Below are positions 1 through 5,793 of a stretch of DNA of 5,793 bases, one piece after another. The DNA comes from Escherichia coli (GTDB taxonomy: Bacteria > Pseudomonadota > Gammaproteobacteria > Enterobacterales > Enterobacteriaceae), in the NCBI RefSeq assembly GCF_003334255.1, contig NZ_QOWU01000103.1. One strand, written 5' to 3'. Each line of letters opens with the position of its first letter. Position 1 is the first letter of the stretch. The translations under genes and the position numbers were made by a program. A model generated the notes under the pieces. That model made no database searches. It was not told the origin of the DNA and worked only from the letters and a program-made list of their open reading frames with translations.

Positions 1-452
1 GCGCCTCAGCGCGCCGTCGCGTCGATAAAGATTACGGGATGGGGCGAAACTGGTATCTGTTCGAAAAGGGCCGTAAATGGTCTTACAGGGCGATTCGTCA
101 GGGCTGGCCAGCATTCTCACCGTGGCTTGATGCAGTGATTCAGCGTGTCGAAATGTACAACGCATCGCTTCCCGTTCCGCTTTCTCCGGCTGAATGTCGG
201 GCTATTGGCAAGAGTATTGCGAAATACACCTACCGCAAATTCTCTCCTGAAGGCTTTTCCGCGGTACAGGCTGCTCGAGGTCGTAAGGGCGGTAATGCAA
301 ATTCATCAGAAAATCAGGCTATTAAAGGTCAGAAATCAAAGCGTGTAGCCGTTGCCACATCGGCACGAACTCTGAAGCCGTGGGTGACGTTAGGGATCAG
401 TCGTGCCACATACTATCGAAAACTAAAATGTGATCCAGATCTCGCAAAATGA
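1..452 (+). CDS. rep: ColE2-type plasmid replication initiator Rep (plasmid-specific primase), 3' portion. The CDS starts at 5239 and continues across the circular junction; positions 1-2 complete a codon begun at 5716, and the stop codon TGA is at 450-452.
   Basis: ORF 39..452 is in frame with the ORF starting at ATG 5239 once 5717 is equated with 1. The joined product (309 aa; MSAVLQLFREKLPHKPYCTNDF...HAHLLYAL...RATYYRKLKCDPDLAK) matches my recollection of ColE2-P9 Rep almost residue for residue over long stretches. Identification is from memory of the family, not a database search. Confidence 0.88.
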   Translation, partial: ASARRRVDKDYGMGRNWYLFEKGRKWSYRAIRQGWPAFSPWLDAVIQRVEMYNASLPVPLSPAECRAIGKSIAKYTYRKFSPEGFSAVQAARGRKGGNANSSENQAIKGQKSKRVAVATSARTLKPWVTLGISRATYYRKLKCDPDLAK

Positions 453-481
453 GACCAGATAACAAGCCTTATCAGATAACA
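450..481 (+). other. ColE2-type origin of replication (Rep binding and primer-synthesis site), overlapping the rep stop codon
   Basis: Sequence TGAGACCAGATAACAAGCCTTATCAGATAACAGCGCC directly after rep closely resembles the ColE2 minimal origin as I recall it (GACCAGATAA...CCTTATCAGATAACAGCGCC), with a 2-3 nt difference in the middle. Position immediately 3' of rep is as in ColE2 plasmids. Exact boundaries are uncertain. Confidence 0.6.
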
Positions 482-501
482 GCGCCTGTAGGCGTTTTTT
501 T
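482..501 (+). terminator. Hairpin plus T-run downstream of rep and ori; candidate rho-independent terminator and/or AT-rich ori flank
   Basis: GCGCC-TGTA-GGCG stem-loop at 482-494 followed by seven T at 495-501. Confidence 0.45.
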
Positions 502-658
502 GAGCGGGTAGGTTTGGGGTGATTTCCCGTGTTTCGTTTGGCAATGGTTTTAGCGTCTGTGTGTGAGTGGTGGTTGTGCTCGCCGCAGTCTCAATGACCG
601 AGCGTAGCGAGCGAATGAGCGAGGAAGCACCAGGGAACCGGAACGTGAACGGAGGCTC

Positions 659-1105
659 TTACGCACTGTCTTTGGTGAGTAGCTCTTTCCCGCGTTTTTC
701 CCATTCCTGCCATTTTGGATGGTTGCGCGGTAGCTCTGCGATTCCTGCGAGTGCGCCTACCAGTTCGGCAGCACTAAACTTTGGTTTTCCGGTTTTGCTG
801 TCCACCAGTCCTGCCACAATCATGAGGCCTGCGGCCTTGTAGAGTTCATGATCCCGCGCCTTTCGTTCCGCCCTTGCGGCTGCCTTCCGTTCTGCCGCTA
901 TTATTGCCGTTACCCTGGCTTTTGCTGCGGCTGCTTTCTCTGCGGTTTTTTCTGCCCGTATCAGTGCGGACAACGTTTTTTCATCCGTCGTTGTTCGGTT
1001 TTTTTTCTCTGCCAGTAACACAAGTAATCTCTGCTGCTCTGACGGTGATTTCAGTCCGTTGATGTAGGCAATTTTTGCACTTAACCACTCTTCACGATTT
1101 GTCAT
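659..1105 (-). CDS. Putative mobilization accessory protein (MobC-like, oriT-binding), about 148 aa from the ATG at 1105. The longest ORF extends to the ATG at 1192 (177 aa) but that extension overlaps the oriT hairpin.
   Basis: Minus-strand ORF divergent from mobA with oriT between them, the RSF1010 arrangement. Ala/Lys/Arg-rich central region (AEKAAAAKARVTAIIAAERKAAARAERKAR). GAGG Shine-Dalgarno 6-9 nt upstream of the ATG at 1103-1105; none obvious for the ATG at 1192. Family assignment rests on context rather than a recognised motif. Confidence 0.5.
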   Translation of the reverse strand: MTNREEWLSAKIAYINGLKSPSEQQRLLVLLAEKKNRTTTDEKTLSALIRAEKTAEKAAAAKARVTAIIAAERKAAARAERKARDHELYKAAGLMIVAGLVDSKTGKPKFSAAELVGALAGIAELPRNHPKWQEWEKRGKELLTKDSA

Positions 1106-1189
1106 TCTTACCTCTGCACTTTTGCCGTTAATGTGAGTTGTTATTGTGCATAATATCACCTTGTCTGCCTGCGTGTGAGACCTTAAAAT

Positions 1190-1250
1190 CATCCCTGATT
1201 AATTCAGGGATGCGCACTTAGACGTTTCTCTCCTTCGTCGAGAAACAGTG
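1190..1250 (-). other. Origin of transfer (oriT), MOBQ/RSF1010-like; predicted nick on the minus strand near plus coordinates 1212-1214
   Basis: The minus strand reads GTTTCTCGACGAAGGAGAGAAACGTCTAAGTGCGCATCCCTG. The inverted repeat GTTTCTC/GAGAAAC (plus 1224-1230 and 1240-1246) and the downstream TAAGTGCGC core (plus 1212-1220) match the RSF1010 oriT (GTTTCTCGAAGAGAAACCGGTAAGTGCG^CCCT) as I recall it. A second perfect 9-bp hairpin lies at 1190-1212 (CATCCCTGA-ttaat-TCAGGGATG). Confidence 0.7.
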
Positions 1251-1276
1251 CGCTCCTGCGGAGGGCTTAACGGCAG

Positions 1277-4686: not shown

Positions 4687-4939
4687 TTTCCTATCCTCTG
4701 GTTTGATTTTTGGAATTTGTTGTTATGACTCTTCAATGCTAATTCTCTTGTAAGCTTTTTTACACGCCATAAACACGATTATGATGTTTTATATTGTCGA
4801 TATTTCGTTGTCCAGACTGGATATGTTTGGAAATTTGTTTTCATGCGGGTTAGTTCAGCTGGCTTTCTGGATGAGAAAGTTTGCTGTTTTGACCAGTTCG
4901 CGCTTCTGAAGGGGTGAAACCGATCATTAATCGCTTTTG

Positions 4940-5082
4940 TGCATAGTTATGCAGGCCCCTAAAAACGATTCTGACGCGTTTTTTGTGTTTTCCCTAGGTT
5001 TATCTTGTCTTTTTGAGTTTTTTGCGTCAGAAAGCGATTGAGAGCGTTTTAGAGGGTACGTACAAGAGGAGTTATGGTAAAT
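4940..5082. other. cer-like Xer (XerC/XerD) site-specific recombination site for plasmid multimer resolution: core 5055-5082 plus upstream accessory region with an ARG-box-like palindrome at 4940-4953
   Basis: Core GGTACGTACAA-GAGGAG-TTATGGTAAAT versus ColE1 cer GGTGCGTACAA-TTAAGGGA-TTATGGTAAAT as I recall it: one mismatch in the XerC arm, an identical XerD arm, and a 6-bp central region. The palindrome TGCATAGTTATGCA sits about 110 bp upstream, where cer has its ArgR box. Confidence 0.7.
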
Positions 5083-5103
5083 GGGTCTGGTTTTCGGGAA
5101 GGA

Positions 5104-5132
5104 TCGACAGGATTTGCCGTTGGGTGTAGTGT
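5104..5132 (+). promoter_or_regulatory. Candidate rep promoter (-35 TCGACA at 5104-5109, 17-bp spacer, -10 TAGTGT at 5127-5132)
   Basis: Hexamer match only. It would give a leader of roughly 100 nt, consistent with antisense-RNA-controlled ColE2 rep expression. Confidence 0.3.
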
Positions 5133-5139
5133 AACCAAC

Positions 5140-5250
5140 TGAAAAACAAACGCCCCTGAAATTCGTGCCGATCCGCCAAGACTGTCACGAAAATTCAAGG
5201 GGCGTGTGGGTCGTAACACACGGAGGAAATCCTAACACATGAGCGCCGTA
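5140..5250 (-). ncRNA. Candidate antisense RNA (ColE2 RNAI-like) complementary to the rep mRNA leader; coordinates approximate
   Basis: On the minus strand, an imperfect long hairpin (plus 5150-5163 pairing with 5192-5205) is followed by TTTGTTTTTCAG, a terminator-like 3' end near 5140. ColE2 replicons are known to regulate Rep with an antisense RNA of roughly 115 nt over this region. The 5' end and promoter were not identified. Confidence 0.4.
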
Positions 5251-5793
5251 CTTCAACTCTTCAGGGAAAAATTACCGCACAAACCGTACTGTACGAACGA
5301 TTTCACGTACGGCGTTCGCATTCTACCGAAAGATATCGCCATCCTTGCCCGTTTCATCCAGCAGAACCAGCCACATGCGCAGCACTGGCTGGCCTTTGAC
5401 GTTGACCGGACGGGGGCAGCGATCGACTGGAGCGACCGGAACTGTCCGGCCCCGAACATCACCGTAAAAAATCCACGTAACGGGCACGCGCATCTGCTCT
5501 ACGCGCTCACTCTTCCGGTGAGAACCGCGCCGGATGCATCGGCTTCGGCGCTCAAATACGCTGCCGTGATTGAGCGTGCGCTGTGTGAAAAACTGGGCGC
5601 GGATGTGAACTACAGCGGCCTGATCTGCAAAAATCCGTTCCACCAGGAATGGCAGGTGGTGGAATGGCGTCGGGAACTCTATACCCTCGACGAACTGGCG
5701 GATTATCTTGATTTGAGCGCCTCAGCGCGCCGTCGCGTCGATAAAGATTACGGGATGGGGCGAAACTGGTATCTGTTCGAAAAGGGCCGTAAA
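5239..5793 (+). CDS. rep: ColE2-type plasmid replication initiator Rep, 5' portion (ATG at 5239; continues through the circular junction into 1..452)
   Basis: Same ORF as feature 1..452. GGAGG at 5222-5226 upstream of the ATG. Translation MSAVLQLFREKLPHKPYCTNDFTYGVRILPKDIAILARFIQQNQPHAQHWLAFDVDRTG... Confidence 0.88.
   Translation, partial: MSAVLQLFREKLPHKPYCTNDFTYGVRILPKDIAILARFIQQNQPHAQHWLAFDVDRTGAAIDWSDRNCPAPNITVKNPRNGHAHLLYALTLPVRTAPDASASALKYAAVIERALCEKLGADVNYSGLICKNPFHQEWQVVEWRRELYTLDELADYLDLSASARRRVDKDYGMGRNWYLFEKGRK
5717..5793. repeat. Terminal redundancy: exact 77-bp copy of window positions 1-77, the signature of a circular molecule written past its own start
   Basis: Base-by-base comparison of 1-77 with 5717-5793 shows identity. 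The match does not extend upstream of 5717. Confidence 0.95.

Follow-up and report, generated by a model that had tools for sequence, protein, structure and literature searches.

The window analysed here is a stretch of 5,793 nucleotides of Escherichia coli DNA (contig NZ_QOWU01000103.1, assembly GCF_003334255.1). It holds six genes: the replication gene rep, whose two parts lie at opposite ends of the window, a traD-like relaxosome accessory gene and a divergently oriented mobA relaxase gene, and a three-gene cargo placed between mobA and the rep control region. A putative replication origin (ori) of the ColE2 type follows rep, and an oriT region separates the traD-like gene from mobA. The initial and the final 77 bp of the window are the same. 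We conclude, with very little doubt, that the window represents a circular, mobilisable plasmid of the ColE2 type, 5,716 bp in length and written out once around, and that its identical ends are a k-length overlap left by the assembler.

The terminal overlap and the rep reading frame

The earlier note had described the two ends of the window as exactly identical, had read rep as continuous across the junction, and had cautioned that features at the edges be interpreted accordingly; all of this holds. Positions 1-77 and 5717-5793 agree at 77 of 77 bases, and no longer exact overlap of the termini exists. Outside these bases the match stops, as positions 78-110 are unlike the bases preceding 5717. 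A self-comparison of the window, of the kind the earlier note had proposed, returned the terminal 77 nt as the sole strong direct repeat, the second-best being 28 nt long with 79% identity. Calculated from the base frequencies of the window, about 5e-39 exact 77-mer pairs are expected anywhere in it, and about 3e-46 for a match at both precise termini; the terminal repeat is therefore not a product of chance. Once one copy is removed, the unit measures 5,716 bp. The first copy (1-77) lies within rep, from the second base of codon 160 to codon 185, and the second copy (5717-5793) is the redundant one, the true circle being 1-5716.

On this circle, rep forms a single open reading frame of 309 amino acids on the plus strand, running from 5239 through the join, which falls inside codon 160, to 452. 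The 5' part of the gene (5239-5716, codons 1-160) continues at window position 1 and encodes the Pfam Replicase domain (PF03090, AEP primase), matched by Rep residues 31-156 with an E-value of 3.5e-42. The 3' part (1-452, codons 160-309 and the stop codon) encodes the DNA-binding domain, in which residues 174-306 match the chain 'Rep' of PDB entry 3VW4 (E 2.6e-63) with a 12-residue insertion. We take 3VW4 to be the DNA-binding domain of ColE2-P9 Rep bound to its origin. A match to PriCT_1 is weak (E 0.016), and no NCBIfam family was found for Rep. At the protein level, Rep is 73% identical to the Rep of ColE9-J.

When the window is read as an untrimmed linear sequence, the list of open reading frames presents rep as a frame of 137 amino acids (39-452) starting from the internal Met173, and the 5' part, which runs off the end, is omitted. 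In practice, positions 5717-5793 should be trimmed, the sequence treated as circular, and rep annotated as one gene. If the ends are left untrimmed, rep appears as this fragment plus an open-ended reading frame, the plasmid comes out 77 bp too long, and its ends could be taken for a direct repeat of biological origin or for the terminal repeat of a virus.

Independent records and the origin of the overlap

Megablast searches with the 5,716-bp unit were run against PLSDB and a set of complete E. coli genomes (n = 5,426). They bear out two further claims of the earlier note, namely that the molecule is a closed 5,716-bp circle and that the repeat is an artefact rather than a biological feature. 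At least 80% of the unit is covered by 29 PLSDB records and is present in about 20 of the 5,426 complete E. coli genomes. At least ten independently closed circular records in PLSDB and RefSeq, from E. coli and Salmonella and from several countries, are exactly 5,716 bp long and 99.9-100% identical to the unit, and the closed records hold the 77-mer once per unit together with the single-copy junction. The best match, NZ_AP022820.1 (JE86-ST05_p5), differs from the unit by two single-nucleotide polymorphisms (window 4143 and 5058), both outside rep, and by no insertions or deletions. This record, in which rep is annotated as the coding sequence of a replication initiation protein at 1-930, is a rotation of the window unit that begins at rep codon 1 (window 5239), and the window join thus lies in its interior. 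It contains the 77-mer a single time and the 377-nt single-copy junction verbatim; the tandem arrangement is absent. JE86-ST05_p5 and at least ten siblings (for example NZ_CP082933.1 from Salmonella, CP056318.1, NZ_CP124378.1 and pSCU-172-4) share the length and the same six genes in the same order at 99.9% identity or more, and differ from the window only in the point of linearisation and in the redundant 77 nt at the window's end. Collinearity across the join extends to a divergent 3.9-kb relative, NZ_AP027250.1 (backbone only, 82-92% identity), where window positions 5716 and 1 correspond to the adjacent bases 2663 and 2662. The plasmid is a known one: it is small, mobilisable and of the ColE2 type, belongs to E. 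coli and related enterobacteria, and is found also in Salmonella. Its sequence has already been deposited, the terminal repeat follows an assembler convention that is well documented, and there is nothing new in the finding, the significance of which is limited to sequence handling.

Other assemblies of the same circle carry other overlaps. When metagenome contigs were scanned for a 40-mer specific to the plasmid, nine were retrieved. Among them, QZLP01001309.1 is 6,015 bp long, corresponding to 5,716 bp plus an exact terminal overlap of 299 bp, and starts at window position 625. NODE_1726_length_5744, a contig named in the SPAdes style, is made up of a plasmid variant of 5,689 bp and an exact overlap of 55 bp, and starts at window position 3643. 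Both the length and the position of the overlap thus vary among contigs while the circle is unchanged, which makes the overlap a property of each assembly rather than of the molecule. The canonical k series of SPAdes is 21, 33, 55, 77, 99 and 127 (PMC8172020); identical contig ends of 77 bp have been explicitly ascribed to this assembler (PMC9409062), and identity between the 77 bp at the start and those at the end has been taken as a sign of circularity (PMC8767329). We found no difference between the ends of the window and a SPAdes-type k-mer overlap, which likewise consists of an exact repeat at both ends with a canonical k length and where trimming one copy restores the genes that span the ends. 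Most likely, therefore, the assembler was SPAdes with k = 77. A de Bruijn graph assembler would have written the cycle as a linear contig, leaving a k-length overlap, and the cut would have fallen inside rep by happenstance.

Some points weigh against this interpretation. We infer SPAdes and k = 77 from the length of the overlap alone. An excerpt of just over one unit from a head-to-tail multimer would look identical and could equally account for the ends, and a record of trimer length, NZ_CP133872.1, exists. The functions proposed below for the ori, the antisense RNA and the nick site are putative and draw on homology. The multimer explanation, according to which the window is slightly more than one unit of a real head-to-tail multimer or of a long-read concatemer and its repeat is not a k-mer overlap, would fit that record, which is labelled 'complete' in RefSeq, is 17,158 bp long and consists of about three head-to-tail 5,716-bp units with a few small differences. 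The record itself may be a genuine multimer or else a concatemer produced by long-read assembly. Multimers may also persist, as no cer-like XerCD site was found in the window by a pattern with up to three mismatches, a search that leaves looser or different Xer sites outside its reach. An arbitrary excerpt, however, is not expected to overshoot one unit by exactly the canonical k of 77, and we give this explanation a very slim chance. If it were true, the replicating unit would still be the 5,716-bp circle, and the annotation would be unaffected.

A second possibility is that the circle truly measures 5,793 bp and contains two tandem copies of the 77-bp segment. Tandem duplications are known in this lineage, where two records carry a 143-bp ori unit two and three times, yet nothing there is specific to 77 bp. 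We searched a 554-nt query representing the tandem (200 + 77 + 77 + 200) over all 5,426 complete E. coli genomes, and every top match places it as two overlapping pieces on a span of 477 nt, which is the single-copy length. The tandem 77-mer arrangement was found in none of the 72,556 plasmids and none of the 5,426 complete E. coli genomes. A genuine tandem is further disfavoured because 77 is not a multiple of three (77 mod 3 = 2): rep would shift frame, and Rep would end at residue 230 of 309 with most of its origin-binding domain lost. Moreover, the repeat sits precisely at the termini of the contig and has precisely the length of a standard k. We thus consider a real duplication exceedingly improbable. 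Direct terminal repeats also serve as a completeness signal for viral contigs, and the window could on that account be a small phage or satellite genome whose direct terminal repeat is genuine. It encodes no phage structural, packaging or lysis proteins, the PHROG matches being confined to the LysE and methyltransferase-like cargo proteins, and a search of the viral contig collection for the junction 44-mer found no occurrence. The gene set comprises rep, ori and mob, the near-identical records are all plasmids, and the repeat lies within an essential gene, which speaks against a phage terminal repeat. With no virion, packaging or lysis match in PHROG and no occurrence in viral contigs, the phage explanation was rejected, and we regard its probability as practically negligible. 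An assembler overlap on a closed 5,716-bp plasmid is the explanation that we retain.

One further metagenome contig, OLNQ01003871.1 (11,757 bp), contains the plasmid once in its entirety (5,721 nt), joined to about 5.9 kb that is unlike the window, and has a terminal overlap of 55 bp. It is probably an assembly-graph chimera.

Putative replication origin and copy-number control

Identity to ColE9-J is about 79% over the block that begins at 4873 and runs through the join to 628. Directly downstream of rep and overlapping its stop codon lies the putative ColE2-type ori TGAGACCAGATAACAAGCCTTATCAGATAACAGCGCC (450-486, plus strand). In ColE2, too, the ori is located immediately downstream of rep (PMC2831885). 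Within the ori, the 15-mer ATCAGATAACAGCGC (471-485) is common to ColE9-J at the same position after rep, whereas the left half reads GATAACAAGCCTTATC here and AATAAAACCTATATC in ColE9-J; this comparison was made against ColE9-J and not against the ori sequence of ColE2-P9. A pattern scan identified a hairpin, AGCGCC-TGTA-GGCGTT followed by a T-run, at 481-503 on the plus strand, which overlaps the end of the ori and resembles a rep terminator.

The 366 nt upstream of rep (4873-5238, plus strand) comprise the putative rep promoter and leader, a copy-number control region, and show 92% column identity to the ColE9-J leader. On the minus strand, antisense to the leader, folding gives a long GC-rich hairpin at 5150-5205 with the loop CUUGGCGG, followed by a U-run at 5141-5149. 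The element as a whole (5141-5205) is near-invariant relative to ColE9-J and is a candidate for the terminator and stem-loop of a ColE2-type antisense RNA I. The fold z-score of the antisense-strand hairpin is only -1.5, and a promoter scan of the window found no more sites than in shuffled sequence and none for the putative antisense RNA. In ColE2, an antisense RNA acts against the rep 5' untranslated region, the primer is AGA, and there are two incompatibility determinants (PMC5304414). The ColE2 Rep is a plasmid-specific primase, whose short primer, ppApGpA, is extended by DNA polymerase I (PMC4538821).

An Rfam search of the whole window (E ≤ 1) gave PK-repBA as its sole match, and the score of 19 bits is sub-threshold. 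The match was not taken to indicate membership in this family, 19 bits being below the gathering score of 45. In the alignment, the minus-strand hairpin at 5150-5205, with CUUGGCGG in its loop, falls opposite a stem-loop from the repBA control region of IncB/IncI, whose loop is similar. This likeness looks like a convergent or shared kissing-loop design.

Taken together, the plasmid resembles the class C theta replicons ColE2-P9 and ColE9-J in its AEP primase domain, its C-terminal domain matching 3VW4, an ori carrying ATCAGATAACAGCGC directly after rep, the 92% identical leader, and the candidate antisense-type hairpin. Unlike them, it carries no colicin, immunity or lysis operon, and its Rep has the 12-residue insertion relative to the 3VW4 chain noted above. 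By analogy, we postulate that Rep, with its AEP-type primase and C-terminal origin-binding domains, would bind the short ori behind its own stop codon and lay a short primer, which DNA polymerase I would extend. An antisense RNA against the rep leader would hold down the synthesis of Rep.

Two records that are otherwise near-identical to the plasmid, NZ_JBWLLH010000002.1 and NZ_CP166717.1, measure 5,716 + 143 and 5,716 + 286 bp and carry two and three perfect tandem 143-bp units, respectively (at ~880-1400). The unit corresponds to window 353-495, where it is present in a single copy, and spans the 3' end of rep, its stop codon, and the whole ColE2-type ori. It ends at the ori-proximal hairpin, with a GTT microhomology at the junction. 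These repeats may be either real origin amplifications or long-read assembly errors. An 18-nt inverted repeat with 83% complementarity (352-369 and 5162-5179) connects the left edge of this unit to the region of the antisense hairpin upstream of rep, and may be due to chance.

Mobilisation module and low-GC cargo

The traD-like gene (659-1105, minus strand) encodes a putative relaxosome accessory protein of 148 amino acids that matches Pfam TraD (PF06412, E 1.7e-8) and is named TraD in RefSeq records. A good Shine-Dalgarno sequence precedes its start at 1105; no NCBIfam family was found for the protein. The mobA gene (1277-2362, plus strand) encodes a MOBQ-class relaxase of 361 amino acids (Pfam MobA_MobL PF03389, E 8.8e-38). 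Its score against the NCBIfam MobQ equivalog is 100.8 bits, under the cutoff of 200, and the type that MOB-suite gives for the matching records is MOBQ. Among the six genes of the plasmid, none encodes a coupling protein or mating-pair component, which makes it a mobilisable rather than a conjugative plasmid.

Between the two divergent genes, the oriT region (1193-1262, plus strand) comprises a palindrome at 1193-1209, the inverted-repeat arms GTTTCTC (1224-1230) and GAGAAAC (1240-1246), and the hexamer AGTGCG (1247-1252), with a nick predicted before C1253. The arms and the nick-proximal hexamer are identical to those of the RSF1010 substrate CAGTTTCTCGAAGAGAAACCGGTAAGTGCG/CCCTCCC, for which we used the oligonucleotide sequences printed in PMC4814116. 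The oriT core (1208-1270) recurs with 92-94% conservation in many further small plasmids of enterobacteria, while the remaining intergenic region is not conserved. The module shares with the MOBQ plasmids RSF1010/R1162 the MobA/MobL relaxase domain, the same 7-nt arms, the AGTGCG motif followed by C at the predicted nick, and a divergent accessory gene. In contrast to RSF1010/R1162, the loop is 9 nt here and 3 nt there, the 5-nt spacer between the repeat and AGTGCG is missing, the relaxase lacks a primase fusion, and the accessory protein is TraD-like (PF06412) rather than MobB or MobC. MobA would be expected to nick this RSF1010-like oriT between the two genes, with a co-resident conjugative plasmid supplying the transfer apparatus.

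The MOBQ4 group of ColE9-J and pIGWZ12 is characterised by closely related mobA genes, a MobC of fewer than 100 amino acids, and an oriT intergenic region of 178 bp (PMC6856555). Judged by sequence comparison, no relaxase phylogeny having been made, the plasmid does not belong closely to this group: over 223 amino acids, its MobA shows 31% identity to the mob region of ColE9-J. The 148-residue TraD-like protein has no tblastn match in ColE9-J, and the intergenic region is 171 bp here, with no nucleotide similarity.

From about 2363 to 4872, the GC content drops to 0.29-0.35, compared to 0.46-0.56 in the backbone. This low-GC cargo is missing from the 3.9-kb relatives. Its first gene (2383-3099, plus strand; GC content 0.33) encodes a putative membrane protein of 238 amino acids (WP_001175444.1) that is predicted to be mostly helical or coiled-coil, with a hydrophobic segment at about residues 150-172, and that has no significant match in Pfam, NCBIfam or PHROG. 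PADLOC matches to AbiZ (6.5e-4), a type I specificity subunit (3.6e-3), and mad2 (1.8e-3) were weak and were dismissed as coiled-coil or Rossmann-fold noise; the AbiZ match, which concerns the 238-residue protein, is probably of the coiled-coil kind.

The second gene (3157-3729, minus strand; GC content 0.29) encodes a putative LysE/RhtB-family exporter of 190 amino acids, which is annotated as a LysE family translocator and matches NCBIfam TIGR00949 with an E-value of 9.4e-17, below the cutoff of that family. The third gene (3736-4686, minus strand) encodes a 316-residue protein with a predicted class I S-adenosylmethionine (SAM)-dependent methyltransferase fold. Its AlphaFold2 model has a pLDDT of 94.4, and the top Foldseek matches in the PDB are to CmoA, the closest relative by structure (4GEK, 1IM8 and 4IWN, E ~1e-9); a profile search against PDB sequences gave an E-value of 3e-4. 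In its motif I region, LG(M/T)AEG stands in place of the usual GxGxG. Homologues of this protein occur in Citrobacter, Pectobacterium, Klebsiella and rhizobia. In the chromosome of Pectobacterium brasiliense, as in the window, a CmoA-like gene is directly followed by a co-oriented LysE gene, the chromosomal two lying between an ABC transporter operon and gcvP, which suggests a conserved two-gene make-and-export cassette. No LysE gene directly follows the Rhizobium/Agrobacterium homologue. It is conceivable, though rather doubtful, that the CmoA-like/LysE pair constitutes an uncharacterised system for making and exporting a small molecule derived from SAM or an amino acid, carried by a widespread cryptic plasmid.

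The segment 2075-5082 of the window, which comprises the 3' end of mobA, the whole cargo, and part of the region upstream of rep, recurs in large plasmids (82-186 kb) at 99.8% identity. These have thus taken up the small plasmid, whole or in part. In one of them, NZ_CP146684.1, the segment lies between remnants of microcin B17 immunity genes and a pore-forming colicin operon beside an IS91 transposase.

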